Position numbers and translations under genes: made by a program | The notes under the pieces: generated by a model | What the model saw: the letters and a program-made list of their open reading frames with translations, nothing else | What the model was told of the DNA's origin: nothing | The model's database searches: none | Origin: Candidatus Shapirobacteria bacterium | GTDB taxonomy: Bacteria; Patescibacteriota; Microgenomatia; UBA12405 | Length of the DNA stretch: 64,000 nt | Direction: 5' to 3' | Assembly (NCBI GenBank): GCA_041659325.1 | Contig: JBAZYN010000001.1 | Span: 3,098-67,097 of the forward strand | Shown: positions 1-22,520 of the stretch, piece by piece | Layout: each line of letters opens with the position of its first letter | Position numbering within the stretch: the stretch's first letter is position 1

Positions 1-1
1 T

Positions 2-469
2 ATCAAAGTTATGATCTATCGTTCTGACAAAACTGAGTTTACCGCCGATAATAGCACCAAGGTCGGTGAAGTTGGTATCAGCCCCGGCCAAGAGGGAAGT
101 TACACAGATATTATCTCAGGGGATTGTAACAAAGATTATTACTACGTTGTCCGCGCTTTCGATGATTCCGGCAATGGTAGCGGTGCTGTCGGAGATTCGG
201 TCACCGTTCATATCGGCTCTGTCCAAGGTACTTCTGCCACCGGCCAGCCAGGTGCCGTTCCCGTCACCGGTGTATATCTTTCAGGAGAAACCACCACCAC
301 TACTACCGGCCAGGGAGAATCGTCTCCGGTCGATTCTGATGGCTCTATTTTAGGTGAAAAAGAAGCTACCGAGGAAGCTGCCAAAGCCACCACCCGATGG
401 GCTATAATCTCCGTTGTTGCCGGTCTTCTGATCATTGGCTATGGCCTCAAAAAAAGATCTGAAAAATAA
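2..469 (+). CDS. Surface protein, 5'-truncated by the window edge; FN3-like segment (YYYVVRAFDDSGNGS), Thr-rich linker, C-terminal TM helix and basic tail (GLKKRSEK)
   Basis: Open frame continues to position 2 with no stop; C-terminal hydrophobic helix plus KKRSEK tail; a sortase gene follows immediately. Confidence 0.5.
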   Translation: MKVMIYRSDKTEFTADNSTKVGEVGISPGQEGSYTDIISGDCNKDYYYVVRAFDDSGNGSGAVGDSVTVHIGSVQGTSATGQPGAVPVTGVYLSGETTTTTTGQGESSPVDSDGSILGEKEATEEAAKATTRWAIISVVAGLLIIGYGLKKRSEK

Positions 470-1052
470 GCTAAATTACCTGCCCATTATTTTTGGGTTA
501 ATTTTATTGGCCGTCGGTCTTTTCATTCCGGCTACCATCTATTTTCCTGTGGCCAAGGCAGAAGTTATATATCAGCTAAAATCAAACTCCCAAATTTCAT
601 TTCCTTCCGTCGAGCCGGTTGATCGGGATTTTTCCATCGTTATCCCAAAGATTGGCGCCAATACCAAAGTTATCAAAAATATCGACCCCCATAACCCCAA
701 GGAATACCAGTTAGCTCTCACTAGGGGAGTTGCTCATGCTCTAAACTCCGGCCTACCCAACGAGCAAGGGAATACCTTTATTTTCGCCCATTCCGCCGGA
801 AATTGGTATCAGGCCAACCGTTACAACGCCGTTTTTTATCTATTAAACAAACTCGTCGAGGGTGATGAAATTATTGTCTATTATCAGAACAAAGATTACC
901 ACTACTTCGTCACCGAAACCAAATTGGTCAACGGTTCGGAGATAAGTTATCTCAGAAACACCTCTTTCGGTCACCAATTAACCCTCATGACTTGCTGGCC
1001 ACCGGGAACCACCCTAAAAAGGCAAATAGTTATTGCCAATCTCTCGCCCTAA
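435..1052 (+). CDS. Sortase family transpeptidase
   Basis: N-terminal TM anchor; His in FIFAHSAGNW, Cys in TLMTCWPPG (TLxTC motif), downstream Arg (TLKRQIV). Confidence 0.7.
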   Translation: MAMASKKDLKNKLNYLPIIFGLILLAVGLFIPATIYFPVAKAEVIYQLKSNSQISFPSVEPVDRDFSIVIPKIGANTKVIKNIDPHNPKEYQLALTRGVAHALNSGLPNEQGNTFIFAHSAGNWYQANRYNAVFYLLNKLVEGDEIIVYYQNKDYHYFVTETKLVNGSEISYLRNTSFGHQLTLMTCWPPGTTLKRQIVIANLSP

Positions 1053-1055
1053 ACC

Positions 1056-1694
1056 CTATTTATAGGTAATTTTAGCGTTTTTGTTCAACTCCGCCAGCCA
1101 TTTGCTGATAGCCTCATTTCCTGCCTGGCTCGTCAATTCCTCCTTGGCGGTACTCTGCATTTCTTCCTTAGTCGTTCCCTTTGGAAACTGATCCTTATTC
1201 TTTTCAATAAAATCATCAATCTGTGCCTGAGTTACTTCAGCATTGGCGTTTGCCATCACTTCTACCATTTTTTGCATTCGGATTTGGTCTTCCAGTTGGG
1301 CTCTGGTTATACCCTCAGCTTTCAGCGCCTCGTCCATCGTTTGCCCCATTGCCGTTATTTGAGTTTCAATTTTTTTAATTTCCTCATCTATTGCCTGCTG
1401 TTGGATTTGCACCCCTTTCTTTTTTGCCTCACTCCGGACCAGAGTTTCCTGCACCATTCTGTCGAGTACGGCCTTTCCGCCCTGTTTTTCCATTGTTTGG
1501 ATATAAGCAATTCTGGAAATTGGTTGCCCATTAACTATTGCCACATTCCAATATCGGTAATAACCATATCCTAAAGCGGCCAAAACTAACACCAAAAGTG
1601 CCAGGTAAACCGACACCGCTTTATTTATATTTTTTTCAGAAATAGTCACCTTTTCAACAGTTTCTATCTCAGGTTTTTTTATCTTTTTTTTCAT
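1056..1694 (-). CDS. Membrane-anchored SurA N-terminal-domain-like chaperone/foldase (PrsA/SurA-like)
   Basis: N-terminal TM helix, then a coiled, Q/E-rich domain resembling the SurA_N architecture; no PPIase motif seen. Confidence 0.4.
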   Translation of the reverse strand: MKKKIKKPEIETVEKVTISEKNINKAVSVYLALLVLVLAALGYGYYRYWNVAIVNGQPISRIAYIQTMEKQGGKAVLDRMVQETLVRSEAKKKGVQIQQQAIDEEIKKIETQITAMGQTMDEALKAEGITRAQLEDQIRMQKMVEVMANANAEVTQAQIDDFIEKNKDQFPKGTTKEEMQSTAKEELTSQAGNEAISKWLAELNKNAKITYK

Positions 1695-2281
1695 TTTTTA
1701 TTAAAATTTATTGTAACAAGGCAAGTATATCATCTCACCCCTTCAGTTTACCTTCAGAAACGATCACTAAAATCCTATTTAAGCTAATTTAACTCAACTT
1801 AGCTTATAAAAGCGCCCGGTTCCACCTGCTGGGCGTTTTTGTTTGCCTGCTCTACATCTCAACACTCGACAAACCAATGTATTATAATGAGTCAGAAACA
1901 ATATGGCTGCAAATATTGAAGTGTGTCGATGTGATCAGAAATTATGCATTAAAACTTTGGTCGGGCGACGTGAAATAAAACTTGATGATGATGCTTATTA
2001 CAACGGGCCAAATTTTCGCGATACTTGGACCATGCATCCTGACTGTCCGCTTCGGGTTGCGTCTGCCGATTCTAAACAAATTTCACCTAGAGGTAGGAAT
2101 TCATCGGGCTAAATATCTACTCTTGTCCTAGTCTCTGGATTGTTGCCACGATATCCCGAAATACCACCCAATCAACAGCAAAAAAAACAATCATAATTTT
2201 AACTACCCACCCCTTTTTCCATATCATCATAAATCACTATAGCCCGAATAAAACCCGAATGTCAATACTCAAATTCCGTCT

Positions 2282-3166
2282 CTAATTTCCACACTTCACG
2301 ATCACTTCATGAGTTTTTGCATTACCCAATTTTACTTCTGTTGTTTTTCCAAGAAGCGATTGCCCGTCATATATAATATCCGTCATTTCCCCGGGTAAAT
2401 TGTAGCTTCGTGATAAATTTAAAGCCGACAAATTAATCTCTCCGCCCTTGGTTGCATCCAGTTTAAAGCTCAATCCTGGCATTTTAGCCACATCCTGCCC
2501 GCCGGTGGCAATAGCACTTCCCGGTAGTCTTAGCCCCGGAATATTAATAACCTGTTCAGTCAATGGTTCAATTGGCCGACACCCCACATTTTTAATGGTA
2601 ATTTCCACCGCCTTGCTGTTCAAAAGTCCCGCTACCGCCACAATTCCTGCTGCCGCAATTGTTAGAGCCCCCAATGGCCCTTTGGCAGTTGCCACTATTT
2701 TTCCCACTCTTACCACCTTTTCTCCTTTGCTAATTTCAGACACCCCCTCCGCCCCGGCCAACGCCGTCTGAAGCCCGCTAATTCTTTTCACTTCGCCCGC
2801 AAGTCCGCGATAATTTCCCAAAAGTAATAACAACATTTTCTTGTACCTCTTTTGTTTTTTCGTCTTTTCCGGAATTTTTTCCAAGCTCAAACTGATTACA
2901 TCTCCGGCCTTAACCTTTTGTATTTTTTCAATAACTTTAAAAGTGGCCTCCAGCTGTTTGTCTATTACCGGGTTAAATCCTTTAATCAGGGCTGAAATTT
3001 TTTGAAATTTATCAAGACTGGTTGTCTCCTCACACAGTAATTCCAATCCTGTCTTAATTTTTTCTTTTTGTTCCGGTGTTAGTTTTTTCATATACCTTGA
3101 ATATATCAGATTTTCAAATATTCTTCGTCTGGCCGGTGTCAAAGACATTTTATAATCTGGTATCAT
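2282..3166 (-). CDS. Hypothetical protein with internal hydrophobic Gly/Ala-rich segment
   Basis: Long ORF with coding-like composition and no overlapping alternative; no recognisable motif. Confidence 0.4.
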   Translation of the reverse strand: MIPDYKMSLTPARRRIFENLIYSRYMKKLTPEQKEKIKTGLELLCEETTSLDKFQKISALIKGFNPVIDKQLEATFKVIEKIQKVKAGDVISLSLEKIPEKTKKQKRYKKMLLLLLGNYRGLAGEVKRISGLQTALAGAEGVSEISKGEKVVRVGKIVATAKGPLGALTIAAAGIVAVAGLLNSKAVEITIKNVGCRPIEPLTEQVINIPGLRLPGSAIATGGQDVAKMPGLSFKLDATKGGEINLSALNLSRSYNLPGEMTDIIYDGQSLLGKTTEVKLGNAKTHEVIVKCGN

Positions 3167-3174
3167 AAAAGCTC

Positions 3175-3624
3175 ATGATTACCAAATTAGGCAAGCAAAA
3201 ACTAGAAAAACACATCTTTGATCTGCGCCAAGAGCTAACCCGCACCGTCGAAGAGCGGGCCAAGGCTGCCTACGAGGGCGATCTGAAAGAAAATTCAGCC
3301 TATATTTTTCTTGGTGAACGTGCCGAAGTATTACGGTCTCAGATAGTAGAGGCCGAAGGAGACCTGAAAATGTCTATAATCCAAGACATGCCCCTAAACA
3401 CTGATTCCGTTAACTTCGGTCATAGCGTAACCATCCGCTACGAGTTAGACAAGAGGGAAATCACGATTACTTTGGTCGGCAAAAACGATGCCCGGCTTAA
3501 ACCGGGTTGGATTTCAGTTGAAAGCCCGGTGGGTTTGGCTCTCAAGGGCAAAAAAATAAATGAACAGGTGACTGTCAACGACCAATTAGTCACCATTCTT
3601 CATATTTCTCAGGGGGATTTGTAA
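3175..3624 (+). CDS. greA: Transcription elongation factor GreA
   Basis: N-terminal coiled coil with EGDLKENSAY (GreA acidic-tip signature); FKBP-like C-terminal domain; about 150 aa. Confidence 0.88.
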   Translation: MITKLGKQKLEKHIFDLRQELTRTVEERAKAAYEGDLKENSAYIFLGERAEVLRSQIVEAEGDLKMSIIQDMPLNTDSVNFGHSVTIRYELDKREITITLVGKNDARLKPGWISVESPVGLALKGKKINEQVTVNDQLVTILHISQGDL

Positions 3625-3638
3625 CCAAAGTCAATTTT

Positions 3639-4253
3639 GTGTCATACTTTTCCATGTCCGCAATTCTTAAATATGTTTTAGGAAGTTTACTGACAATCGA
3701 CCTGCTGATTCTCAATTATGGATTCGTCCGCTCGCTTGAAAATCCCAAGGTTATTCCTCTAAAAACCGAAAGTATACCCACTCCCACCCAAATCCAAAAA
3801 CTCACTCCAACCTTAATCTCACAGCCGGCAAGTACCGCCACCCCCACCAAACCATTACCCAAAAAATTATCCAGTCCAAAGGTTAAAACCGTCGCTTATG
3901 TTCCGATTCCTGGTAGTGGCAGCATCCTCAATCCCCAGTGGACCGATATCCCCGGCACCGAGTTTAGTATCAACACCGATGATTACCCAAATCTTACCGA
4001 TGCCCGGTTTGAGGCCAATATGAAGCTCTTGAACGGAAATGGCAAAGCTTTTCTTCGGCTTTTCGATACCACCGTTGGCATTGAGGTTTGGGGTAGCCAA
4101 ATCGAAACCGGTAGCCAAAATTTTACCTTTGTAACTTCGGGTGAAATCTATATCCGCCCCGGCAATCATCTTTACAAAATTCAGGCCAAAAGCCTGACCG
4201 CCGACACTACCGTATTAAATTCCGCCCGGATTAAGATTGTCTCCGAAAACTAG
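3639..4253 (+). CDS. Membrane-anchored or secreted hypothetical protein
   Basis: N-terminal hydrophobic segment, Thr/Pro-rich linker, beta-rich C-terminal domain. Confidence 0.45.
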   Translation: MSYFSMSAILKYVLGSLLTIDLLILNYGFVRSLENPKVIPLKTESIPTPTQIQKLTPTLISQPASTATPTKPLPKKLSSPKVKTVAYVPIPGSGSILNPQWTDIPGTEFSINTDDYPNLTDARFEANMKLLNGNGKAFLRLFDTTVGIEVWGSQIETGSQNFTFVTSGEIYIRPGNHLYKIQAKSLTADTTVLNSARIKIVSEN

Positions 4254-4411
4254 TATCATTGGTTAATCAAATTGTGTATCAGCAACATCCGTGCTATACT
4301 CCCATCTGATTTATTTTAGGCAATAGAATCGTTAAAACTGCCCTCCGCACTCTGATTGTGCATAATAAAATTTAGGGCAATATTAAGATCCCGCCTTATA
4401 GGCCACGGATT

Positions 4412-5623
4412 TTGCCACAATTTATTTTTATTATGTACTACAACAGCAAGTTTTCCCGTCCCTCATATCCCCGTCACGCTAATTTTCGTGGCGGCTTCAA
4501 AAGTAGGCCCAGAAGTTTTGCCAACCGTATCGATGTTTCAAAATATATCAGAAAATCCGAAGACTTTATAAAGATAGAAGAAACAGAAACCCAAAACAGT
4601 TTCGAGGACTTTGGTTTTAGCGACATCTTATTTCAAAATATCAAAGCCAAAGGTTACATCAAACCTACTCCGATTCAGGATCAGGTTATCCCCCAAATCA
4701 TCGCTGGTCGCGACATTTTGGGTTTAGCCAACACCGGTACTGGCAAAACCGCCGCTTTTGCTCTGCCTCTAATCGAAAAGATTCTCAAAAACCCTAACAA
4801 ACGGATGATAATTCTAGCTCCGACTCGCGAATTAGCCATGCAAATTAAGCAGGATATCCGTGATTTTACCCCAGGCTTAAGAGTCTTTTTGGCTCTAGCC
4901 ATCGGTGGTGCCTACATTCGTGATCAGATTATTGATATTAGACGTGGTCCCCACATTATCATTGGTACCCCCGGCAGAATTAAGGATTTATATGAACGAC
5001 GGATTATTGATTTTTCCAAAATGGATACCGTAGTTTTGGACGAAGTCGATCGAATGTTGGATATGGGATTTATTGATGATATCCGAATGATTCTGGACAA
5101 AATCCCCAAGACCCGTCAAACCCTGTTTTTTTCCGCCACCGTCGATAAAAAAATCGAAAGCTTAATCGATACTTTTCAAAATAATCCTGTCAAAATTTCC
5201 GTCAAAACGGAAAACAGCTCTTCCCATGTTGACCAAAATATCGTTCGGGTTGAAAGAAACAAAAAAGAAGATACTCTTTGTCAATTACTCTCCGGCGATG
5301 ATTTCAAAAAAGTTTTGGTTTTTGGCGCTACCAAAAGAATGGTCGAGAAATTATCTATCACCTTAATCCAAAAAGGTTTCAATGCCGGCGCTATTCATGG
5401 TGACAAAGCCCAGCACCAAAGACAGCAGGTCGTTAAGTTATTCAAAGAAAGCCGGATCAAAATTTTAGTCGCTACCGACGTTGCCGCCCGGGGTTTAGAT
5501 ATTGCCGATATCACCCACGTTATCAACTATGATCAGCCAAACACCTACGACGATTACATACACCGCATTGGTCGTACCGGCCGAGGCAACTGCAAAGGCT
5601 TTGCCTTAACTTTTGTCGAATAG
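4412..5623 (+). CDS. DEAD-box ATP-dependent RNA helicase (RhlE/DeaD-like)
   Basis: Q-motif PTPIQ, Walker A ANTGTGKT, DEVD, SAT, HRIGRTGRG; RG-rich N-terminal extension. Confidence 0.9.
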   Translation: MPQFIFIMYYNSKFSRPSYPRHANFRGGFKSRPRSFANRIDVSKYIRKSEDFIKIEETETQNSFEDFGFSDILFQNIKAKGYIKPTPIQDQVIPQIIAGRDILGLANTGTGKTAAFALPLIEKILKNPNKRMIILAPTRELAMQIKQDIRDFTPGLRVFLALAIGGAYIRDQIIDIRRGPHIIIGTPGRIKDLYERRIIDFSKMDTVVLDEVDRMLDMGFIDDIRMILDKIPKTRQTLFFSATVDKKIESLIDTFQNNPVKISVKTENSSSHVDQNIVRVERNKKEDTLCQLLSGDDFKKVLVFGATKRMVEKLSITLIQKGFNAGAIHGDKAQHQRQQVVKLFKESRIKILVATDVAARGLDIADITHVINYDQPNTYDDYIHRIGRTGRGNCKGFALTFVE

Positions 5624-5701
5624 GTTAAAATTACATTTGTTTTTCAAACCAGTTTAGTTCCCCTCCTTTTTCAAAGCCTGCCCGCCTCTGGAGGGGAGGG
5701 G

Positions 5702-6385
5702 TTAGGGGTGGATTTTAACTCTAAATACCCTGTAGAAATACAGGGTTTTTTCTATCACCATGGTCGCTAGAAGCCAGGCAAATCCGGCCACAAAACCCGC
5801 CGCCACATCCGACGGATAGTGAACCCCCAGGTACACCCGGCTCAATCCGACCAGAGACACAATAGAGATTGCTATTGCCAGATATTTCGACAACACATAC
5901 TGATTTTTTGTGAAACGATAGGAAAAATATGCCAAAGTAAAATAAAAAACAAACGAATTCATGGCGTGGCCTGACGGAAAGCTTGTTGTTTTTTCTTCCA
6001 CCAGGGGAGACAAGTTGGGTCGGGGCCGGTCAATAAAATGTTTCAGGGTCAAGTTTAGTCCGGCACAAACCAACAGACTCAGCCCGAACAATAGAGCCGG
6101 CCTGGTATGTTTTTTATACATTAGATATCCTATGGTCAAAACAGCTATTGTCCCTAACCAATAACCGGACCCCAAAAAGGTAACAAATTTCATCACCTCC
6201 GTCAAAATCGGGTTTCGGAAACTATAAACAAACCAGGACATTGTTTCGTCAATATAAATCATGTTTGCCCTAAAGATCCGTTCCGAAAATTCATAAAAAA
6301 CTCTGATGGATGCCAAAGAAATCACCAAGCCCGCTCCAATCTCCCCCAAAATTACCAAAATGACCCTAATGTTTTTCCACATCAC
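5702..6385 (-). CDS. PAP2 family phosphatase (phosphatidic acid or undecaprenyl-diphosphate phosphatase-like)
   Basis: KHFIDRPRP, PSGHA and SRVYLGVHYPSDV form the three PAP2 signature motifs; multiple TM helices. Confidence 0.8.
   Translation of the reverse strand: MMWKNIRVILVILGEIGAGLVISLASIRVFYEFSERIFRANMIYIDETMSWFVYSFRNPILTEVMKFVTFLGSGYWLGTIAVLTIGYLMYKKHTRPALLFGLSLLVCAGLNLTLKHFIDRPRPNLSPLVEEKTTSFPSGHAMNSFVFYFTLAYFSYRFTKNQYVLSKYLAIAISIVSLVGLSRVYLGVHYPSDVAAGFVAGFAWLLATMVIEKTLYFYRVFRVKIHP
5728..5752 (+). terminator. Rho-independent terminator downstream of the helicase gene (CCCTGTA-GAAA-TACAGGG then T6); lies within the last codons of the convergent PAP2 gene
   Basis: Perfect 7-bp stem, 4-nt loop and T-run read directly from the sequence. 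Confidence 0.5.
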
Positions 6386-6401
6386 TTAATTCTAATACAT
6401 C

Positions 6402-6659
6402 CTATTTTTCTTTTCTCTCTACCTTGATGGTGCATTCGGTCAACAGGGCGGCCAATGTCCCCACCACCGCCAAAATCGGTACCAATACTGCTCCCACCAC
6501 TCCCAGTGTCAGCGGAAATATCACTACAGTCTTACCATTCTTATCAAGAATCGAAATTTGCCGGACATTTCCTTCGCGGATTATCTCTTTAACTTTTTTT
6601 AACAATTCTTCACCCTTGACTTCAAACGTATCATTTTTTTTTGTTTTTTTAATTGCCAT
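6402..6659 (-). CDS. DUF4342 family small protein
   Basis: FEVKGEELLKKVKEIIREGNVRQISILDKNGKTV...PLTLGVVGAVL...ECTIKVER matches the remembered DUF4342 consensus. Confidence 0.55.
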   Translation of the reverse strand: MAIKKTKKNDTFEVKGEELLKKVKEIIREGNVRQISILDKNGKTVVIFPLTLGVVGAVLVPILAVVGTLAALLTECTIKVERKEK

Positions 6660-6660
6660 T

Positions 6661-7083
6661 TTATTTATTCCTTAAATATATATGAGTAATGGTTTTAACA
6701 ATCATCGCTCCACCCAATGCTATCATTATTACCGGGTCAATTTCATTTGTTTGTTTGATAATTCCCATTGCTGTCTGGTAAGCAATACCTATCGTCAACG
6801 CCCCGATCATAAACCACATGGCGTTTCTTTCTGCCTTCGCCTCATGTATCGTTTCCCTCTCATCCTTTTTCATCCGGATCATTATGTCAATTAAATCGAC
6901 CGAGAAAATCAACGCCCAAGTGAAAGTTATTCCTGTTTTCAGTGATTCCGAAACTGGCACTATCTGCAAAAGAAAAATAGGAGCGGCGACCGCCAATATA
7001 TAAAGCCACCCCTGGAGGCAATTTGGGGTAACCCCCCAGCCGCCGTATTTTCTGATACTAAACCATTTTGGGTTTCCGATCAT
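6661..7083 (-). CDS. Integral membrane protein, about 4 TM helices, unknown function
   Basis: Hydrophobic segments; translationally coupled within the minus-strand operon. Confidence 0.45.
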   Translation of the reverse strand: MIGNPKWFSIRKYGGWGVTPNCLQGWLYILAVAAPIFLLQIVPVSESLKTGITFTWALIFSVDLIDIMIRMKKDERETIHEAKAERNAMWFMIGALTIGIAYQTAMGIIKQTNEIDPVIMIALGGAMIVKTITHIYLRNK

Positions 7084-7089
7084 AATTTT

Positions 7090-7278
7090 TTAAAAAATAA
7101 ATAACTCATCAATTTTTGTTTTAAGCGCTATTGCCACATCATGGGCCAACTTCAAAGAGGGAATATATTTCCCCTGTTCTAGAAACACGATAGTTTCCCG
7201 CCTTACTCCCACCGCTTCGGCCAATTGTTCCTGAGTTAGGCCGTGTTTGGCTCGCAGTTCTTTAATTTTGGTTTCCAT
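7090..7278 (-). CDS. XRE-family (Cro/CI-type) helix-turn-helix transcriptional regulator
   Basis: [24 protein letters not shown] is a canonical HTH_XRE segment; 62 aa. Confidence 0.8.
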
Positions 7279-7282
7279 CTAG

Positions 7283-7861
7283 CTATATGTTAGAACTATC
7301 TAACATATTTGTCAAGCACTTCATAATTCCATCATAATTCACCTTCTCAAAATCCGTTGTATCTACTTCAATTAATTCTCCGACGCCCAAAGGTCCCGCT
7401 TTTCCGGCCATAAGTACTTTTTCCTGTTCCGAATAGCACAAACGGTCCACATGCCCGGGGTGGCGAAGACCACTTTCTGCCCTTTTTTTAAATCTCTCAA
7501 ACAATATTTTTCCATCAGCAAAACACAATATTTCAATCACTCTAAATGGATACTTTTTCTGTAAATCCAAAAGCATTTGTCTGTCAATTTCCGGTTTAAA
7601 ATTACTTTCCAAGACGAGCGATCGTCCTGTCTTCAATAAATTTTCCGTAATTTGGTACAAGATTTTATAACTTACTCCTCCCATTTTTTTTGACCAATCT
7701 CTGTCCGAATACCCCAATTCATCAAACAACAATTCCTTAAACATGTCCTTACTAAAATAGGGGATAGAAAATTCTTTTGAAATTTTTCCCGCCAAAGTCG
7801 ATTTTCCGGTACACGAAAGTCCCGAGACTACAATCATAGTTGGTATGCTCACATTTATCAT
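7283..7861 (-). CDS. P-loop kinase-like protein (AAA_33 / chloramphenicol-phosphotransferase-like fold)
   Basis: Walker A GLSCTGKST at the N-terminus; size and layout of small-molecule kinases. Confidence 0.55.
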   Translation of the reverse strand: MINVSIPTMIVVSGLSCTGKSTLAGKISKEFSIPYFSKDMFKELLFDELGYSDRDWSKKMGGVSYKILYQITENLLKTGRSLVLESNFKPEIDRQMLLDLQKKYPFRVIEILCFADGKILFERFKKRAESGLRHPGHVDRLCYSEQEKVLMAGKAGPLGVGELIEVDTTDFEKVNYDGIMKCLTNMLDSSNI

Positions 7862-7948
7862 TATCCCTCAAAGCAGGACTTTAAACCACTCCAATCTCGA
7901 CTAAGCCAGTCATATTGCACTTTCCAAAAATTAACCTAAGATGTAACC

Positions 7949-9318
7949 ATGTGTGGAATTTTTGGAGTTTATAGTAAAAACCTGGAAGCCTCCAGACTGG
8001 TTCATAGCGGTCTGTGGGCCCTTCAACACCGCGGACAAGAGGGTTCAGGCATTGTTTCCTCTGATGGCAGAAAATTACACGTCCATCGGGGTATGGGCTT
8101 GGTTGCTTCCGTTTACAACGAGGAAAACCTTCTCAGCTTACCCGGTCCCATTGCCATCGGCCACAATCGCTATTCAACTTCCGGCGGTGCCGGATGTGAT
8201 CACTTACAGCCGGTAATTAGAGAAGATCGGATACTCGCACTAGCTCATAATGGTAACCTTCCGACTACTGATAAATTAAAATTGTTCTTAACCTCGAAAG
8301 GGATCAATACCAACTCCTGAACGACTCGGAACTCATGAGAAAAGCCGTTGGTTATTACCTGGTCAAGGGCATGAGTTTGGAAAAGGCGGTTGAAAAATCA
8401 TACCCATTATTTACCGGAGTTTTTTCCTGTCTTTTGATGACCGCCGACAAAATCGTTGCCATCCGCGACCGTCATGGAGTCAGACCTCTGTCAATAGGCA
8501 CCCTGGAAGACGGGAGCACCGTCTTTTCATCAGAGACATGTGGTCTCAACATAATTGGTGCCAAATGGAAACGCGACGTTCTGCCCGGGGAAATGGTTTC
8601 AGTTGATCACCATGGCCTCGAATCACAGCAGTTGGTCTCCGGCAAAGAAATGATCGATGTCTTTGAGTTTGTATATTTTTCCCGGCCCGATAGCAATATT
8701 GCCGGGAAAAATGTTAATCAAGTCAGAAAAAATTTAGGACGCCAATTGGCTCATGAAGTTTCAGTTAAGGCCGATTTAGTCATCCCCATCCCTGATTCGG
8801 CCATCCCCGCCGCCATAGGTTTCTCAGAAATATCAAAAATACCCTTCGACATGGGTATCATCAAAAATCGCTATATCCACCGGACCTTTATACGCCCTGC
8901 CCAAAACATTAGGGAAGGCGACATAAAAATTAAACTTAATCCTCTCTCTTCAATAATCAGCGGCAAAAAAATAGCCCTGATGGACGATTCTATCGTCCGG
9001 GGGACTACTTCCCGGGAAATTGTTAGCCTGCTTCGCCAAGCCGGGGCCACAGAAGTCCATTTTTTAGTCAGTTCCCCTCCGGTCAAATACCCGGATTTTT
9101 ATGGTATCGATACCCCGCGCCAGGATCAGCTTATTGCTGCTGTCAAAAATATCAAAGAGACAAAAGAATATATCCGCGCCGATAGTTTAAACTACTTATC
9201 ATACAAAGGTATGCTAAAAGCCGTTGGTTTACCCGAAAATCACCTCTGCACCTCATGTTTTTCCGGTCAATATCCGATTAGTATTGGTTCTCGTCTAAAC
9301 GATATTAAAATAATATAA
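7949..9318 (+). pseudogene. purF: Amidophosphoribosyltransferase PurF interrupted by a -1 frameshift near 8303-8306 (ORF fragments 7949..8320 and 8335..9318)
   Basis: N-terminal MCGIFG Ntn amidotransferase domain runs into a TGA at 8318; the PurF alignment resumes in the -1 frame (QYQLLNDSELM resembling FQTTSDTEVI) and continues to the PRTase domain (MDDSIVRGTTS, SSPPVKYPDFYGIDTP). Confidence 0.75.
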
Positions 9319-9327
9319 TAATCCAAG

Positions 9328-9837
9328 ATGAAAAAAATAATTTTTATTTTAGGCATTAGTTTTATGTTAGTCGGTTGTGGACAGACCCCCATCCCTTCTT
9401 CTTCCGGTCTCTCTGGTCCCACCCAACCTCCCAAAGATATTTTTACGACTATCAAAGATGCTGTCCAAAAACAATTAGTTTTAAAATGCGAATATACCGA
9501 CGAAGATGGTAGTAAAACCCAGACATATATAAAAGGGCAAACCGTCCGAATGATCGGTCAGGGAGACGACAATAAAAAATTAAATGGTCTGATGAAAGAC
9601 GGTAAATTTTATATCTGGAGTGAAGAAAATATGCAGGGAATGGTCATAGACATTGGCAAAATGGAGGGTGCCTCAATGGGTAAAACTCCTATCAACAGTA
9701 TTGACGATGTCATTGGTGTCTTAGAGTCCCAAAAAGATAAATGTATTGTCTCTCCCGAAAGTACGGGCCTTCTGGATCTTCCCGCCGATATCAAGTTTAC
9801 CGATAGCGGCAGTATTTTTGGTGGAACAGAAAACTAG
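9328..9837 (+). CDS. Lipoprotein (signal peptide with lipobox LVGC)
   Basis: MKKIIFILGISFMLVGCGQ lipoprotein signal; hydrophilic mature domain. Confidence 0.55.
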   Translation: MKKIIFILGISFMLVGCGQTPIPSSSGLSGPTQPPKDIFTTIKDAVQKQLVLKCEYTDEDGSKTQTYIKGQTVRMIGQGDDNKKLNGLMKDGKFYIWSEENMQGMVIDIGKMEGASMGKTPINSIDDVIGVLESQKDKCIVSPESTGLLDLPADIKFTDSGSIFGGTEN

Positions 9838-9855
9838 GTTTATCTCGATTAACCC

Positions 9856-9888
9856 AAAAACCCCCCTTCGATAAACTCAGGGGGGTTT
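9856..9888. terminator. Bidirectional intrinsic terminator (CCCCCCT-11nt-AGGGGGG flanked by A5 and T3) between convergent genes
   Basis: 7-bp GC stem; T5 on the minus strand serves the RRM gene, T3 on the plus strand. Confidence 0.55.
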
Positions 9889-9910
9889 AAGTTTACAAAA
9901 TCAAAATAGC

Positions 9911-10252
9911 TTAGTATCTTGAGCTTCCGCCGCGATAACCGCCGCTTCCGCCTCGTGAATCATGACCGCCGCTGGAATAGTTGTCTCTTCGTGGCGCTCT
10001 TTCTTCCATTGGTTTGGCTTCGTTAACTTTTACGCTTCGACCATCCAATTCTTTGTCATTCCACATATCGATTGCTGCTTGAGCCTGTTCATCGGTCTCC
10101 ATTTCTACAAATCCGAATCCCTTGGACCTGCCGGAGAATTTGTCCATGATAATAATTGCGGATACCACGGTTCCCGCTTGAGCAAATGCTGCTCTCAAAG
10201 TGTCCTCGGTTGTCTGAAAAGACAGGCCGCCGACATACAATTTTTTTGCCAT
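9911..10252 (-). CDS. RRM-domain RNA-binding protein with Gly/Arg-rich tail
   Basis: RNP-2 LYVGGL and RNP-1 KGFGFVEM; C-terminal SGGHDSRGGSGGYRGG. Confidence 0.85.
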   Translation of the reverse strand: MAKKLYVGGLSFQTTEDTLRAAFAQAGTVVSAIIIMDKFSGRSKGFGFVEMETDEQAQAAIDMWNDKELDGRSVKVNEAKPMEERAPRRDNYSSGGHDSRGGSGGYRGGSSRY

Positions 10253-10327
10253 TTTTGGTTAAAAAAATTAATAAATGTAGCGACCTTCTGATCAAATTTA
10301 CTTGACTGACATCACTCTACAGTAGGT

Positions 10328-10358
10328 ATTATACCTTATTTAACAAAAAAAATGTCAA
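10328..10358 (-). promoter_or_regulatory. Candidate sigma70-type promoter for the RRM gene (TTGACA, 19-bp spacer, TATAAT on the minus strand)
   Basis: Hexamers read directly; spacer is 2 bp longer than optimal. Confidence 0.35.
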
Positions 10359-10376
10359 GTAGTCGGGGGCTACCGG

Positions 10377-11267
10377 TTACGACATCGTCCGGGTCATTAT
10401 CCACAAAACCATGCATCGGGCGAGATAGTAGGCATTTTCCGGTACCGAAGGAATTTTGTTTACAATTCTTTCCCACCATCTATACTTTTTCGGTAGACTT
10501 TGTTCCCATACGAGGTATTTATTTTTTATCCTTTCCACAATTTCTTTTGGCTCCATGTCCGAATAATTCAAAATTGACTCTCCCTCAGAAAAAGTCACTC
10601 TGCATTGCGGCATTATCATTGAAACTCCCGGAATTAATCTAAAATAATCCCACTCCGATGTCCCCGAAAGATGCGCCATTATTATTTTGGTTTTTCGGTT
10701 AGTCATGGCACTTTTAATCAGATATCCGATCCCCGAAAACCACTTTCCCTTTTTCCCGCCACCTCCCGGAAACATCGAAACCATTCCACCGTTTTTGACT
10801 ATCGAGGCTGCTTTATTAATACTTTCTATATTTTTCAGGTGGGATACTTCCTTCGGAAGACTCTCGCTCGAGTGGATTTTTCGGAAAATTCTCAGCAATA
10901 AATTATTTAGCTTGTCTCTGTTGTCGAGCAATCGGTAATTTATATGAACCGGAATCAAGTGGTTATCAATATTGGACAACATCCCCAAAAAATTTGAGCT
11001 AATTATAAGAAAGCTGTCTTCTCTCGGTTCCTGTGCTGCTGTCAACACCACCACGTCCGTCATCGCCGGGTGATTTGACACTACAATCACCGGCTCACTC
11101 TTAAGAATGGATTTCAGCCGTCTATTTTTATTAAATACTTTCAGTTTTGTGCCTGTTGCCGTCAAAATCTCGCGCATTATCCCCTGATAACCCAACTTTA
11201 GTGATTTCTCGTTAAAATCTCTTACTATTTTCCCCACCAAAGGCAAACAGTCCAATTTTTTCACCAT
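10377..11267 (-). CDS. Lysophospholipid (1-acyl-sn-glycerol-3-phosphate) acyltransferase family protein
   Basis: VVSNHPAMTDV matches NHxxxxD; FPGGGG lies at the FPEGTR-like position. Confidence 0.55.
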   Translation of the reverse strand: MVKKLDCLPLVGKIVRDFNEKSLKLGYQGIMREILTATGTKLKVFNKNRRLKSILKSEPVIVVSNHPAMTDVVVLTAAQEPREDSFLIISSNFLGMLSNIDNHLIPVHINYRLLDNRDKLNNLLLRIFRKIHSSESLPKEVSHLKNIESINKAASIVKNGGMVSMFPGGGGKKGKWFSGIGYLIKSAMTNRKTKIIMAHLSGTSEWDYFRLIPGVSMIMPQCRVTFSEGESILNYSDMEPKEIVERIKNKYLVWEQSLPKKYRWWERIVNKIPSVPENAYYLARCMVLWIMTRTMS

Positions 11268-11333
11268 TATTATAATCTATCATTCTTTGTTTGCCCCCAT
11301 CAAAGATATTTTTATAATGTAAAATACATACAT

Positions 11334-12404
11334 ATGTCGGTCAATCAGGCTAATTTTAACTATTATCTCCCTGCCGAGTTGATTGCTGCCGCTCCATCAA
11401 ATCCCCGTGATAGCTGCAGGTTAATCACTCTAAACAGGCATACCGGTTCAATAAATCAGACTTATTTTTATAAATTGATCGATCAATTAACCGAAAATGA
11501 TGTTTTAGTTCTTAACCAGAGTAAAGTTTTCCCGGCCCGAATTTTTGGCAAAAAAGAAACGGGCGGCCGGATAGAACTATTATTACTGCGATCCCTCAGT
11601 GACTTCACCTGGACAGCTATCTCAAAGCCGGGTGCCAGAATCGACACCCAACTTATCTTCCCACGGAATCTAAAAGGCAAAGTAGTTAGCCGGACTGTCA
11701 GCACGGGAGAGATAGACATCGAATTTAACCAGAACAAAAATGAATTATTAAAAACATTACACGCAATTGGTCACACCCCCCTTCCTCCATATATTAGCTC
11801 AAAAGAGCCAGAAGCCGATCTTCGCCGCAACTACCAGACTGTTTTTGCCACTGATGTCGGTTCTGCGGCTGCTCCCACCGCCGGGCTTCATTTTACCCAA
11901 AAGCTTTTAAAAAAAATAAAAAGTAAAGGCATCCAATTGGAATATCTTACTCTCCATGTCGGACTTGGAACTTTTCAACCGCTTAGGCAGGAAAACATTA
12001 CCAATAAAAAGCTTCATCTCGAGTACTACGAAATTGCCCCGGACGTGTTAGCCCGACTCAATCAGGCCAAGAGTGCCGGCAAAAGAATTATCGCCGTCGG
12101 CACAACTTCGGCCAGAGCTTTGGAATCAGCTTCAACTGATCAGGGCGTACTTATCCGCGGAACTTCTGCTACCGATATTTTTATCTTTCCACCATACAAA
12201 TTTAAATTTGTCGATAGTCTTATTACCAATTTTCATCTCCCGGAATCAAGCCTATTAATGCTAGTTTCTGCTTTTGTGTCATTCCCCAACACGGTTTTTC
12301 AATATAACGACTTTTTGACATCATCTATCGGACAGGTATATTTAAAAGCCATCGAGAGTAAGTATCTTTTTTTCAGCTTCGGTGACGCTTGTTGGATTTA
12401 TTAA
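11334..12404 (+). CDS. queA: S-adenosylmethionine:tRNA ribosyltransferase-isomerase QueA
   Basis: FNYYLPAELIAAAP, GSAAAPTAGLHFT, VGTTSARALES. Confidence 0.9.
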   Translation: MSVNQANFNYYLPAELIAAAPSNPRDSCRLITLNRHTGSINQTYFYKLIDQLTENDVLVLNQSKVFPARIFGKKETGGRIELLLLRSLSDFTWTAISKPGARIDTQLIFPRNLKGKVVSRTVSTGEIDIEFNQNKNELLKTLHAIGHTPLPPYISSKEPEADLRRNYQTVFATDVGSAAAPTAGLHFTQKLLKKIKSKGIQLEYLTLHVGLGTFQPLRQENITNKKLHLEYYEIAPDVLARLNQAKSAGKRIIAVGTTSARALESASTDQGVLIRGTSATDIFIFPPYKFKFVDSLITNFHLPESSLLMLVSAFVSFPNTVFQYNDFLTSSIGQVYLKAIESKYLFFSFGDACWIY

Positions 12405-12459
12405 CGCCCACTTTCCACATAATTGAATTTTTTTACAATCCGTATATCATTAAATTATT

Positions 12460-12990
12460 ATGAAAAAGCGCCAAACTCCCAAAACCAAAAAAATACCTTC
12501 CGGTTCTTCCCTGTTACCTGTCCTATCTCAAGAGACAATTCAGTGGCAGAGACAAAATATCCCCCTTCTGGCTGGTTTTGTAATCATTGCCGCCTGTTTC
12601 GTTCTGACCCTGACAAAGCTATCGGCCGTCAAGCCCGAGCCAATTGCAGCCAACCCTTCGCCCCCAATCGACACCCAGTCGGTTTCCGACTGTACCCCCT
12701 CTCCGGATATCTTTTCCGGTATCGGTGTCAGGTTGGAGCAAGTTGAAAACAAAGTCCGTGTCCAAAAAACAATTCCCGGATCGCCTGCTGAAAAAAACGA
12801 TATTTTGTCGGGTGATGTTATTTACCGGGTAGACGAAACTCCTGTTGTCGACGTAAACGACGCTGTTGCCAGAATCAGGGGAGAAATTGGCGTTCCTGTA
12901 AGAATTATTTTATATCGCAATAACCTCCGTCTGGACAAGACGATTGTCAGGGACAACATTGTCGACGAAGAAAACTTAATCTGCCGGTAG
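12460..12990 (+). CDS. Membrane-anchored PDZ-domain protein
   Basis: N-terminal TM helix; GIGVRLEQVENKVRVQKTIPGSPAEKNDILSGDVIYRVDETPV is a PDZ fold signature. Confidence 0.6.
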   Translation: MKKRQTPKTKKIPSGSSLLPVLSQETIQWQRQNIPLLAGFVIIAACFVLTLTKLSAVKPEPIAANPSPPIDTQSVSDCTPSPDIFSGIGVRLEQVENKVRVQKTIPGSPAEKNDILSGDVIYRVDETPVVDVNDAVARIRGEIGVPVRIILYRNNLRLDKTIVRDNIVDEENLICR

Positions 12991-12998
12991 TTTTAAAA

Positions 12999-15900
12999 AT
13001 GAAAAAGTCGACCAAGCTTTTATTTGTAATAATTTGTATTATTTTATTTCTATCCGGTTCACTGTTTCTTAGGCTAAAAATCAAAAAACCCGTCAACACA
13101 AGTGTTGTGCCAATGGATATCGAGTTTGCTGCCTCAAAAAAAAGTTCATCAGGGGTCGACCCCCAATCACCAATTATTATCTCCAGTAGTCAAACTCTTG
13201 ATGCCCAAGCCATTTCTCAAGCCATAAAAATTACCCCGGAAGCCGATTACTCGGTCAAAAAAATAAACGATAACTCAGCCGAGCTTAACTTTAGAAAACC
13301 TCTCGAAAAATCAACCGTCTATCAAATTAGTCTAAATCGCTCAAGATGGGCTTTTCAAATCGAGTCTCCCCTTGCCGTTACCGGTTCTTTGCCCGGCAAC
13401 AAATCTACCGATGTCAACCCCAATACCTCAATAGAGTTTTATTTGAATAATCCTGATTTTCTTACATCAGCCAACCAATATTTTAATATTCAGCCATCCG
13501 TTTCCGGCCGTTTTGAAAAACATCAAAATTCTCTCGTGTTCATCCCCTCATCTCTTACCGCCGACACCTTATACACCGTTACTCTTAAAAAGGGATTTCC
13601 TCTGGCCGACAATTCCCAAAAATTACCCGATGATTTTTCTTTTCAATTCGAAACAGGCAATACCGACAAAACTCAAGTTTCGCGTTTTGATTTTCAAAAA
13701 CCCATCTTCGAGTCATCTCCCGACAAACCTCCTATCGCCATTATCAGCAATTGGGATCCGCCCTCTCAAAAAGTAAAAGCCAAGCTTTATCAATTCAACA
13801 GTACTGATTTCCAAGACTGTCTGACCCAAAAGATTGCCCTTCCTTCCTGGGCTCGTCATAGCCGATATTATCGTTGCCAAACTACCGGGAAATCAATTTC
13901 TGAGTTTGAGTTGGACACAAAATCCCCCACAGAATATGGCTCGAAATACCTGGAACTTCCTTCAAAATTACCCATCGGGTATTATGCCCTTGAAGTCATC
14001 AACCCCGACACCTCAATCAGCCAAACATTAATTGAAGTATCACCCCTTTCATGGTTTTATTGGATAGGAGTCGATGATTCTTTGTTTTGGGTAAACGATT
14101 TGGTTTCTCAAAAACCACTTGCCGACGTTAAACTCTTTCTCGGCTCAAAAGAGCTTGGTGCTTCAAATACCGAAGGATTAGTCAAGCTCACTACCCACAG
14201 CGATTTAAAATCCCGTCAAAACCAAATACTAACCATAAAAACCGCCCTCTTTACCGCCTATAATCTCATTGAATATCAGAATACCTATGGCGGCTATTTT
14301 GCTTCTTCCGAAGCCGAAATAGAAAAAAACAAATATTGGTCGTATCTGTACACCGATAGAGCGATATATCTTCCTTCCGACAAGATTAGTTTTTGGGGCA
14401 TCGTAAAATCACGAGCCATCCAATCCCAAGAGCCAATTACCGTCGAGCTCTCCCGGAATTCTTACTCTTATTGGCGAGAGGAAAATTCTTCGGACAATAT
14501 AATCAAAAAAATAGAAATCACCCCATCCAATCATGGCACATTTCAGGGGGTCTTTGATTTCTCCAACCTAAACCCGGGATATTACAGTCTCATTGCCAAA
14601 AAAGGGGACACCTTTATCACCCAACAAGGTTTTTCGGTTGAAACTTTTAAAAAACCCATCTTTCGGATTACAGCTAAACCTCAAAAACTTGTCATCTGGG
14701 CCGGTCAGCCAAACAAAGTTGATCTTTCGGTAAAATTTTATGACGGCACTCCTGTTTCCGAGACCCCAATAGTTTGGAATATGTACGATAGCACCGGAAA
14801 TAAAAAAGGTGAAATTATAACCGACAAGGCCGGAAATGCTAGCCTTGAGATCCCAACCGTTTACGACTCAACAAAAAATTATTGGCCGCAAAATGTCTCG
14901 GTCAACTTCCGACCCAAGGGTATGCAGGAAGCCGACATCGACACCTACACTTCCTTCTTTGTGTTTGGGCCGGAATATAATTTGACCGTAGATTCGGAAA
15001 CCATAGACAGTCAATCCCGGATCACTGTCACCGTAAGAAAAAATGACCTAAGTTTATTAGAGAAATCTCCCTGGAAGAATGAAGGAAACCCGGTGGCAAA
15101 CCAGTCCGTTTCTGTCAAAACCGAACGGGTCTGGTACGACAAAGTAGAAACCGGAGACTACTACGATCCTATCAACAAAATCACCTCAAAAAGATATCGG
15201 TACGATAAAAAAACCGAAGGTGTGTCCAGCCAAAACTTAATCACCGATAGCAACGGCAAGGTCACCTATTCTCAGCCGGTTATCTCCGGTCAGCAATACG
15301 AAATTTTCGTCACTGCAATTGACTCCCAAAATCGGCCTACCAAATCCACTATCTATATTTCCGGCTCCAACTCGTCATCATTCGCTGATTTTTATGCCAA
15401 AACTTCAAAAGACAAGTATTCTCTCGGAGATCAAATAGAAGTATCTCTTAATTACGGCAATGATCCGGCTCCGACTTCCGAACCCAACAAATATCTCATT
15501 TTCTTTGTCAGAAATGGAAAAATTTATAACACGACCGTTTCCGAAAATAATAAACTTAGTTTTCAATTCGGAAACGATTACGTTCCAAATATAATTTTGA
15601 AAAGCGTTTGGTTTAGTGGTTCTACCTACAAGATCAGCAACAATGCCCGTAGCTTCTTGACAAACGGCCTCAACCTCACCTTCGACACCTCATCAAAGGA
15701 GCTGAATATTGATGCAAAAACCGACAAGTCAAAATATCAACCAGGGGAAGAAGCCCTGGTTGAATTATCTGTTAAAAATAACGCCAATCAGCCTCAACCC
15801 AATACCAAAGTCCTTCTTTCGGTGGTAGATGAGTCACTCAGTGATATCGGCGGAATCTCTTCTTCCGGCATCCTATCAGAATTATATTCTTCACTCGGTG

Positions 15901-17831
15901 AAGGTCGATTGGTAGATTATTACTCAAATCAAGTACCCGAAAATGGTGGCGGGGCCGAAGGCGGTGGCGGCGGTGGAGAGAGCCGTTCAGTATTCAAAAA
16001 TACTGTTGCTTTTACCGAACTCACCACCGATGCCACGGGGGTCGCTAAGTACAAACTAAAATTTCCCGACAATATTACCTCCTGGCGGGCTACCATGCTA
16101 GCCGTCGGGAATGATCTCTCGGCCGGAGATGGTCAGTTACTTATTCCTGTTACCAAGCCGCTTTTTGTCGACATAGTGACCAACGACGAATTTATCATCA
16201 CCGATAAACCAAAAATTACTGCCATCAGCTACGGCGAGGGCCTCGACACTGATTCGCAAATTAGTTATTCTCTTAACTCTCCCAGCTTAGGGATAAACCT
16301 CAAAAATATCTCCCAAAAAGCTTTTCTTCCGCTCGAATTTGATTTAGGTCAATTAGTCCCCGGGAAGCACCGCCTCGAGGTCAAGACTTCCTCCGGCAGC
16401 TTCAACGATATCCTGATTAAAACCATAGATGTGGTCAAAAGCCGAAACCTATTGCCAAAACAGGAAATAATAAGTTTAGACAAACAGTACAAGCCAATCT
16501 TTACCAGCCAACGCCCGGTGTACTTTACCTTTATCGACAAAGGCCTGAACTCCCTCTACTCAAAATTAAAACAATTTACCGGCCTCAACTCCTATGGTCT
16601 CAATGAGAGAGTAGACCGCCTAGTTGCAGAAAATATTTCTGTCGGACTTTTATCCCAATATTTTTCCGAAGATACGGTGGAAACCGAAGAAAGCTTTAGC
16701 CGGTATATCCACGAAAAAGGTGTCAGTCTCATGCCCAACTCCGATGCCGATCTGGTATTGACAGCCAAGTTCGCCGCCGCCAATCTTCCGCTCGTCAGTA
16801 AATCTCAGCTTTCCTCCGCCCTCTCGACCTACTTTCGTCAAGAAACTTCCATTGAGCGGGCCAGTGCCGCTCTTTGGGGTCTTTCGGAAACCGGCAAATC
16901 TCTTCTTACCTCCATCGATATCTTATCGAAAGAAAAAAATACTCCCCGGGGCCAAATCTATCTCGGGCTAGCTTTAGCTTCCCAGGGTGATCAAATTTCC
17001 GCCGGGAAGATCCTGAATGAAATTATTGCCAAATACGGCGTAAAACAGGATCCATATCTTTTCATCAAAGTCGACAACAATGAGCAAAATACCCTCGAAA
17101 ATACAGCTTTGGCCATGATCTTATCGGCCAAAGTCGGCTCCATTGAACTGCTTGATAAACTGTGGTCATATCTTGATATTGCCAAATCAGAAGAACAACT
17201 TTATGTCTTGGAAAAAGCCATTACCATAAAATCGTCCATCGCCTCATACCCATCATCACTCTCCGAGTTTGAATATCAGTTATTGGGTCAAAAGTTTACT
17301 AAAAAATTATCCGACGATAAAATCCATACAGTCGTGGTTCCTCAAAACGAATTATCCACTTTCTCTGCCACCCCTATTTCCGGTTCAGTCGATATTATTG
17401 TTCGCTGGTGGGAAGATTTTGACTTATCTCAAGTTACGGTTAACCAAAATATTTCTCTCGATGTTTCTACCGCTCCCATATCCAAAATATCCGGTTCTGA
17501 ATACATGGAGTTTATCGTTACCCCCAAAATTTCCAAAAACACCACCAACGAATCATATTTAGTTTCCGTCAATCTCCCCTCCGGGCTCAGACTAATCGAC
17601 AATCCCTACTTCTATAAAACCCTGAGCGGGAAAAATGAATTTTTCAGTTTCCCATCATATATTGAAAATAACCGGCTCATTTTCCGATCAAATTTTACCT
17701 ATCCTATTCGCTTTTTAGCCCGACCAATCAACAAAGGTCAATTTTCTTTCGAGCCGTCATTTCTTTATTCGTCAAGCACTATTAATCAGCTAAATGTCTC
17801 GAAACCTCATCCTGATATCACTATTAATTAG
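12999..17831 (+). CDS. Giant (1610 aa) secreted alpha-2-macroglobulin-family-like protein; MG/A2M_N domains, no visible CxEQ thioester
   Basis: N-terminal signal anchor; KTDKSKYQPGEEALVELSV...VLLSVVDESL resembles A2M_N; FTELTTDATGVAKYKLKFPDNITSWRATMLAV resembles A2M_N_2; size matches bacterial A2M. Confidence 0.5.
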   Translation: MKKSTKLLFVIICIILFLSGSLFLRLKIKKPVNTSVVPMDIEFAASKKSSSGVDPQSPIIISSSQTLDAQAISQAIKITPEADYSVKKINDNSAELNFRKPLEKSTVYQISLNRSRWAFQIESPLAVTGSLPGNKSTDVNPNTSIEFYLNNPDFLTSANQYFNIQPSVSGRFEKHQNSLVFIPSSLTADTLYTVTLKKGFPLADNSQKLPDDFSFQFETGNTDKTQVSRFDFQKPIFESSPDKPPIAIISNWDPPSQKVKAKLYQFNSTDFQDCLTQKIALPSWARHSRYYRCQTTGKSISEFELDTKSPTEYGSKYLELPSKLPIGYYALEVINPDTSISQTLIEVSPLSWFYWIGVDDSLFWVNDLVSQKPLADVKLFLGSKELGASNTEGLVKLTTHSDLKSRQNQILTIKTALFTAYNLIEYQNTYGGYFASSEAEIEKNKYWSYLYTDRAIYLPSDKISFWGIVKSRAIQSQEPITVELSRNSYSYWREENSSDNIIKKIEITPSNHGTFQGVFDFSNLNPGYYSLIAKKGDTFITQQGFSVETFKKPIFRITAKPQKLVIWAGQPNKVDLSVKFYDGTPVSETPIVWNMYDSTGNKKGEIITDKAGNASLEIPTVYDSTKNYWPQNVSVNFRPKGMQEADIDTYTSFFVFGPEYNLTVDSETIDSQSRITVTVRKNDLSLLEKSPWKNEGNPVANQSVSVKTERVWYDKVETGDYYDPINKITSKRYRYDKKTEGVSSQNLITDSNGKVTYSQPVISGQQYEIFVTAIDSQNRPTKSTIYISGSNSSSFADFYAKTSKDKYSLGDQIEVSLNYGNDPAPTSEPNKYLIFFVRNGKIYNTTVSENNKLSFQFGNDYVPNIILKSVWFSGSTYKISNNARSFLTNGLNLTFDTSSKELNIDAKTDKSKYQPGEEALVELSVKNNANQPQPNTKVLLSVVDESLSDIGGISSSGILSELYSSLGEGRLVDYYSNQVPENGGGAEGGGGGGESRSVFKNTVAFTELTTDATGVAKYKLKFPDNITSWRATMLAVGNDLSAGDGQLLIPVTKPLFVDIVTNDEFIITDKPKITAISYGEGLDTDSQISYSLNSPSLGINLKNISQKAFLPLEFDLGQLVPGKHRLEVKTSSGSFNDILIKTIDVVKSRNLLPKQEIISLDKQYKPIFTSQRPVYFTFIDKGLNSLYSKLKQFTGLNSYGLNERVDRLVAENISVGLLSQYFSEDTVETEESFSRYIHEKGVSLMPNSDADLVLTAKFAAANLPLVSKSQLSSALSTYFRQETSIERASAALWGLSETGKSLLTSIDILSKEKNTPRGQIYLGLALASQGDQISAGKILNEIIAKYGVKQDPYLFIKVDNNEQNTLENTALAMILSAKVGSIELLDKLWSYLDIAKSEEQLYVLEKAITIKSSIASYPSSLSEFEYQLLGQKFTKKLSDDKIHTVVVPQNELSTFSATPISGSVDIIVRWWEDFDLSQVTVNQNISLDVSTAPISKISGSEYMEFIVTPKISKNTTNESYLVSVNLPSGLRLIDNPYFYKTLSGKNEFFSFPSYIENNRLIFRSNFTYPIRFLARPINKGQFSFEPSFLYSSSTINQLNVSKPHPDITIN

Positions 17832-19032: not shown

Positions 19033-19056
19033 AATTGTAGGGTATCATAACTCATT

Positions 19057-21951: not shown

Positions 21952-21995
21952 TCTCCAAAATCATTCTCCTAGTGTTAAAATTATAATTCAACTCT

Positions 21996-22457: not shown

Positions 22458-22476
22458 TTTCTTCTCTCCTTCCCCG

Positions 22477-22486
22477 CCCCCCCCCC
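22477..22486. repeat. C10 homopolymer (CCCCGCCCCCCCCCC context) in the intergenic region
   Basis: Read directly from the sequence; unusual in an AT-rich genome. Confidence 0.9.
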
Positions 22487-22492
22487 TCAGGC

Positions 22493-22520
22493 TTGTTATT
22501 TTTCCCCCTCTCCCTATAAT
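22493..22520 (+). promoter_or_regulatory. Candidate promoter (TTGTTA, 16-bp spacer, TATAAT) 11 nt upstream of the ATG; near-leaderless
   Basis: Hexamers read directly from the sequence. Confidence 0.3.

Follow-up and report, generated by a model that had tools for sequence, protein, structure and literature searches.

The best solved relative of the protein considered here is the amidophosphoribosyltransferase PurF of Bacillus subtilis (1AO0, 1GPH). The [4Fe-4S] ligands of the B. subtilis type are Cys236, 382, 437 and 440, a trait of the subfamily and not a criterion for PurF membership, and Asp127 of this enzyme is a glutamine-binding residue. Pseudogenes of reductive evolution are known for biosynthetic genes of Mycobacterium leprae and of insect symbionts. 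Here, we analyze a purF gene that is deposited in two pieces, in a 64,000-nt stretch of DNA (hereafter, the window) from a 573,898-bp contig of a Candidatus Shapirobacteria metagenome-assembled genome (MAG).

The protein encoded at this locus is collinear with B. subtilis PurF (419 bits, query 2-446 against chain 1-449). The two share the N-terminal Cys nucleophile, the HNGN motif, the equivalent of Asp127 (Asp126 once the reading frame is repaired), the DDSIVRGTT motif and a C-terminal CxxCF(S/T)GxYP. The catalytic Cys follows directly on the initiator Met (MCGIFG at 7949) and aligns with Cys1 of mature B. subtilis PurF, and the PRPP-binding loop of type I phosphoribosyltransferases, an acidic pair before S-I-V-R-G-T-T, is present, with ALMDDSIVRGTTS aligning with VMVDDSIVRGTTS of 1AO0. 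Unlike the B. subtilis enzyme, the window protein starts with Met-Cys and has no propeptide, carries Asp237 and Asp383 in place of the cluster ligands Cys236 and Cys382, and is encoded by a copy that is short of one base in codon 124. When the two ORFs are joined, their product reaches 451.1 bits with the NCBIfam equivalog TIGR01134 purF (curated cut-off, 350 bits) and covers profile positions 1-432 of 432. Judged by these matches, the window gene is an ordinary full-length amidophosphoribosyltransferase gene of the B. subtilis type and a regular PurF member, with a class II/Ntn glutamine amidotransferase and a type I phosphoribosyltransferase.

The gene occupies positions 7949..9318 of the + strand, that is, 1370 nt, one base fewer than the 1371 nt (456 codons and a stop) of its orthologues. 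ORF1 (7949..8320, +; 123 aa, starting MCGIFGVYSK and ending at the TGA at 8318-8320) consists of PurF codons 1-123. It covers the glutamine amidotransferase domain in its N-terminal portion only, where both the MCGIFG Cys nucleophile and HNGN lie, and is deposited as MFA5827742.1, 'hypothetical protein WC841_00065'. The remainder of PurF, codons 125-456 and the TAA, lies in the -1 frame at 8320..9318 (+) and comprises what is left of the amidotransferase domain, followed by the phosphoribosyltransferase domain (PRPP loop DDSIVRGTT) and a C-terminal CxxC. ORF2 (8335..9318, +; 327 aa) begins at the first ATG of this -1 frame and is deposited as MFA5827743.1, 'amidophosphoribosyltransferase'. Taken singly, the two ORFs yield partial domain matches with scores near the cut-offs. 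ORF1 alone matches the glutamine amidotransferase domain only, and the -1-frame part matches the remaining amidotransferase domain together with the phosphoribosyltransferase domain (Pfam Pribosyltran). Residues 124-129 (CNDSEL) fall outside both ORFs; among them, Asn125 and Asp126, which are invariant in 121 of 121 homologues, lie downstream of the TGA and upstream of the ATG that opens ORF2. Thus, the residues of the glutamine site (the Asn-Gly of HNGN and the equivalent of Asp127 in the S/N-D-S/T-E motif) are all encoded by the window DNA, as they are by the intact allele described below, and are not found together on one polypeptide of the window. For annotation, the consequence is that MFA5827742.1 and MFA5827743.1 are the halves of one ordinary purF.

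The lesion itself is the absence of one C between positions 8319 and 8320 (+), at the third base of the TGC codon for Cys124. In a DNA alignment with the three closest orthologous loci, the only gap lies at the stop codon, where the window reads TCC TG-AAC against CTT TGC AAT or CCT TGC AAC, and it is on this basis that the missing base is assigned to the third position of the Cys codon. Compared base by base with L004, a contig of the same population that is otherwise identical (see below), the window shows its gap at the same site (CTCCTG^AACGAC against CTCCTGCAACGAC), with the first difference at window position 8320 (CTCCTGAACGAC in the window) and all downstream sequence identical. Loss of the C turns TGC AAC into TGA AC and moves the 332 following codons to the -1 frame. 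The missing C is not part of a homopolymer (CTG^AAC). The true junction reads SKGINTNS[C]NDSELM, corresponding to SKGINTRLCNDSELM or SKGININPCNDSELI in the orthologues.

These results support an earlier note on this DNA in its central claim that purF is split by a -1 shift, given that the 123-aa and 327-aa ORFs jointly cover the whole TIGR01134 profile, and correct it in its details. The note had placed the shift at 8303-8306, about 15 nt away from the only gap that is found, at 8319/8320, against both the orthologues and L004. It had also read the junction as KGI followed by QYQLL; three-frame translation shows that the 0 and -1 frames are both open over 8275..8317 (+), a stretch that takes in the note's proposed site, and 'QYQLL' is the out-of-frame translation within this stretch, where the orthologues and the intact allele read KGINTNSC. 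The note's preference for a 1-nt indel over programmed frameshifting also stands, the alignments showing a single-base gap and the overlap no in-phase slippery site.

The relatives of this gene are intact. The closest ones in the databases (P0001-P0003, 80-84% identity) are single 456-residue proteins, and their loci (L001-L003), which we aligned with the window gene at the DNA level, are single 456-codon ORFs of 1371 nt each with TGC at the lesion site, so that the comparison with orthologous loci that the note had called for yields no second instance of the two-ORF arrangement. Intact PurF is found at 58-84% identity in the 119 full-length relatives listed, and the named ones come from Shapirobacteria, Daviesbacteria, Levyibacteriota, Microgenomates and Patescibacteria. 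Among alignment columns that are at least 97% conserved in 121 homologues (37 encoded by ORF1 and 85 by the rest of the gene), the repaired protein keeps 121 of 122, the sole exception being an Ala to Gly replacement at residue 199. Against the three orthologues, non-synonymous change (pN) is 0.09-0.13 and synonymous change (pS), which is saturated, 0.68-0.78 in both halves of the gene, values that match those between the intact orthologues themselves. The window purF is under strong purifying selection.

The same population also carries an intact allele of the gene. ORF1 shares its 90%-identity cluster with one other protein, P0122, a 456-aa product from the Logan assembly of run SRR18595301, which equals ORF1, plus Cys, plus the -1-frame remainder, residue for residue; insertion of a C after position 8319 gives a translation that equals P0122 at all 456 residues. 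The Logan contig that encodes it, SRR18595301_87358 (L004, 18.7 kb), aligns with window positions 1..16162 with 0 mismatches and one gap, the missing C. Further contigs of the same run cover 18551-30240 with one mismatch, at 24242, and 50295-55649 and 56374-64000 with complete identity. In total, the MAG and the Logan contigs differ by one indel and one single-nucleotide polymorphism (SNP) over 40,834 compared nucleotides, and the MAG and the four contigs are therefore taken to represent one population. When five other window proteins were looked up by exact sequence, four were found in SRR18595301 and the MAG only and one returned nothing. The split form of purF is on record only in the NCBI/IMG deposit. 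Exact-protein look-up of ORF1 and of ORF2 gave no record, an exact 40-mer across the junction had no match in genome_contigs, and a junction pattern allowing either allele had none in metagenome_contigs. Neither allele has further independent copies in these two collections, and only the deposited consensus lacks the base. The converse assignment, with the error placed in the Logan contig, was considered and rejected, as the extra base restores both the TGC codon and the gene length of the three orthologues.

The SNP at 24242 is a C in the window and an A in the Logan contig (L007); on the coding strand, GGA (Gly) becomes GTA (Val), within a - strand gene (23746..24483) of the PD-(D/E)XK nuclease family. 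This SNP points to micro-heterogeneity or to different source samples. The ends of the contigs can also be compared. L004 extends 2,052 nt beyond window position 1, inside an ORF of more than 1000 aa whose C-terminus lies at window 11..469, and gene order and locus-tag numbering suggest, short of proof, that the window start is also the start of the MAG contig, which would cut this ORF. At its other end, L004 stops at window position 16162, inside a 1610-aa ORF (12999..17831), possibly at internal repeats.

The break in purF is therefore either a consensus error or a very recent mutation, and 'pseudogene or assembly error', as the earlier note put it, is still the correct pair of options. We infer, with slightly better than even confidence, that a base was dropped from the MAG consensus. 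The deposited consensus would have lost one C through an assembly or polishing error, or by capturing a minority read variant, and, if the missing base is such an artefact, the organism would make a normal single-chain PurF. Several lines of evidence favor this cause: a gene length of 1370 nt, where the three orthologues have 1371 nt and the alignment a single gap, at the TGC codon; the otherwise mismatch-free contig L004 with its intact 456-aa product; the identity of the population, as judged from one indel and one SNP over 40,834 nt; the confinement of the split form to the NCBI/IMG deposit; and the intactness of PurF in the 119 full-length relatives listed. If the window start is indeed the MAG contig start, the two assemblies broke at different points. 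Furthermore, a null allele of so constrained a gene should seldom become the majority form, and no other split gene was found among the window ORFs scanned. A window-wide error signature was looked for and rejected, there being no further split gene among these ORFs and one indel in 40.8 kb. The note had regarded reads with an additional base at the junction as the mark of an assembly error, and the independent, read-derived Logan assembly has the C, which leans toward an assembly error or a minor variant. Conversely, the site is not a homopolymer, unlike that of the classic long-read or 454-type error; were the MAG assembled from short reads, a deletion that no read supports would be unusual; and the non-synonymous SNP at 24242, with the micro-heterogeneity or difference of samples that it implies, makes a genuine deletion allele entirely possible.

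Such an allele, a genuine and very recent null purF present in some or most cells and coexisting with the intact form, is the one serious competitor of the consensus error, and we give it appreciable credence while doubting it on balance. One non-synonymous SNP in 40.8 kb fits allelic variation within or between samples, and, the site being outside a homopolymer, sequencing error is not an obvious cause of the gap. The deletion allele would be null because residues 124-129, with Asn125 and Asp126, are in neither ORF. Loss of purF might be tolerable, since incomplete de novo nucleotide pathways are reported to be frequent in CPR bacteria (PMC8407418). However, only one run was found to contain the organism, and its direct assembly gave the intact allele; moreover, all full-length relatives retrieved have an intact, strongly conserved PurF. 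The gene also has no second lesion, no relaxed constraint and a single changed conserved residue (Ala to Gly); the deletion, if real, is extremely young. Should the null allele be genuine, it would represent the first step of gene loss in a lineage with an otherwise universally intact, solitary PurF, and the cells may dispense with the enzyme, for example, by taking purines from a host or the community; within CPR populations, it would then serve as a modest case of null-allele polymorphism.

Three further explanations, which together retain only a small share of the probability, differ from both of these. The first, which was the reading of the earlier note, is that the window purF is an old pseudogene, a sign that de novo purine synthesis is decaying in a reduced genome. 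The host is indeed a small-genome CPR bacterium, and the note's observation that no other pur genes lie nearby proved accurate: purF stands alone, with no other pur gene among the window ORFs scanned or in the gene tables of the matching Logan contigs (64 kb). Nevertheless, a decayed gene is very improbable here. There is only one lesion in 1371 nt, of 122 near-invariant columns, distributed over both sides of the break, 121 are retained, and pN (0.09-0.13, against pS of 0.68-0.78) is as low relative to pS as between intact orthologues in both halves. The lesion is not fixed either, as the otherwise identical SRR18595301 contig has the intact gene. The conserved gene neighborhood is another argument against decay, along with the more than 100 Microgenomates and Patescibacteria relatives in which PurF is intact. 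In L001, the one relative with a contig long enough for neighborhood comparison, the order is AAA_33 kinase, intact purF, a small ORF, an RRM protein, an acyltransferase and QueA; the small ORF has no Pfam match, and its window counterpart begins like a lipoprotein. Because L001 has the same arrangement with the gene intact, a solitary purF is the normal, conserved state and not a symptom of loss. The break is accordingly unfit as evidence for the loss of PurF or for the decay of purine synthesis in this organism.

A purF neighborhood scan of genome_contigs seeded with P0122 returned distant non-CPR PurF genes only, at 42-50% identity, which were uninformative on synteny and served for the Cys/Asp comparison below. 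Literature searches for purF or amidophosphoribosyltransferase in CPR/Patescibacteria, for purine metabolism in Shapirobacteria and for the run accession yielded no specific report. Besides purF, the only genes related to one-carbon or nucleotide metabolism that were found in the window are FolD (methylene-THF dehydrogenase/cyclohydrolase, 55052..55891) and a 5'-nucleotidase/metallophosphatase (52802..54265), both of which bear on purine salvage versus synthesis in this organism.

Programmed recoding, in which ribosomes would slip by -1 or hop 2 nt at the TGA and so make full-length PurF, is extremely unlikely. The ORFs do overlap in a 0/-1 arrangement, and a hairpin of 9 bp is predicted 9 nt beyond the TGA. 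However, as the earlier note had recognized for its own site, there is no canonical slippery heptamer: the sole XXXYYYZ sequence in 8270-8320 is AAAGGGA at 8297, which is out of phase, and the overlap contains no in-phase X_XXY_YYZ. The downstream fold has a z of -1.48, with 14 of 200 shuffles folding equally well, and the hairpin sequence is also present in the intact allele, where no shift is needed. P0001-P0003, P0122-P0124 and the 119 full-length homologues listed are all single ORFs, and the full-length relatives have a sense codon where the window has the TGA. The required shift is -1/+2, to which a prfB-like +1 shift at a stop codon is inapplicable. Recoding of the TGA itself (genetic code 4 or 25) was also considered and rejected, as read-through would stay in the wrong frame. 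Just as little credence is due to the idea that the two products (123 aa and 327 aa), deposited though they are as separate proteins, assemble into an active split PurF, given that the break interrupts the N-terminal amidotransferase domain instead of falling at a domain boundary, that six residues, including the invariant Asn125 and Asp126, are in neither piece, and that none of the full-length relatives retrieved is split.

A feature of this PurF that is separate from the lesion concerns the positions of the cluster ligands. Asp237 (window 8657-8659) and Asp383 (9095-9097) stand at the positions of B. subtilis Cys236 and Cys382, and both are invariant in 121 of 121 close (CPR/Microgenomates) homologues; the equivalent of position 382 is Cys in 80 of 80 more distant non-CPR homologues. 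In the repaired protein, only the C-terminal ligand pair is Cys (C434 and C437), and these two positions are mostly Cys among the close homologues as well (97/121 and 112/121). The Asp/Asp replacement is a clade-wide trait and suggests that, across this clade, the cluster either is ligated by Asp or has been lost. The more interesting biology of this locus lies here, in a Microgenomates PurF that is intact, conserved and apparently solitary, with an unusual Asp/Asp at two ligand positions.

Two other features of the window were observed. An M48 peptidase gene and an ORF (33389..33988) whose match to the IS200-like Y1 transposase profile is confined to the C-terminal half lie between two peptidase S51 paralogues (31963..32616 and 34128..34733); the G+C content of 31963-34733 is 0.36, versus about 0.42 elsewhere, and this segment may be a mobile-element remnant or contain a REP-associated transposase. 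Of the 32 2-kb bins of the window (1-64000), 31 have a negative GC skew (cumulative -4.3), and most long ORFs lie on the + strand, so the gene-rich strand is C-rich, the reverse of the usual leading-strand pattern.

The window purF can be set beside the known kinds of interrupted gene. As in the -1 frameshifting of dnaX and of IS3-family transposases, overlapping 0 and -1 ORFs jointly encode one protein; in contrast to these systems, the window has no in-phase heptamer, no significant structure and no conserved arrangement, and an in-frame allele exists. With the pseudogenes of M. leprae and insect symbionts it shares the interruption of a biosynthetic gene in a small-genome organism, but it has one lesion, shows no relaxed selection and has an intact copy in the population. 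It also resembles the frameshift 'pseudogenes' of draft genomes and MAGs, which stem from consensus errors or minor alleles and in which, likewise, one indel interrupts a conserved gene, the halves are annotated separately and an independent assembly holds the intact version. The commonest context of these is a homopolymer run, and the window lesion lies outside one. The lesion belongs to this familiar class of single-indel 'pseudogenes' in draft and metagenome assemblies and is nothing new in kind.
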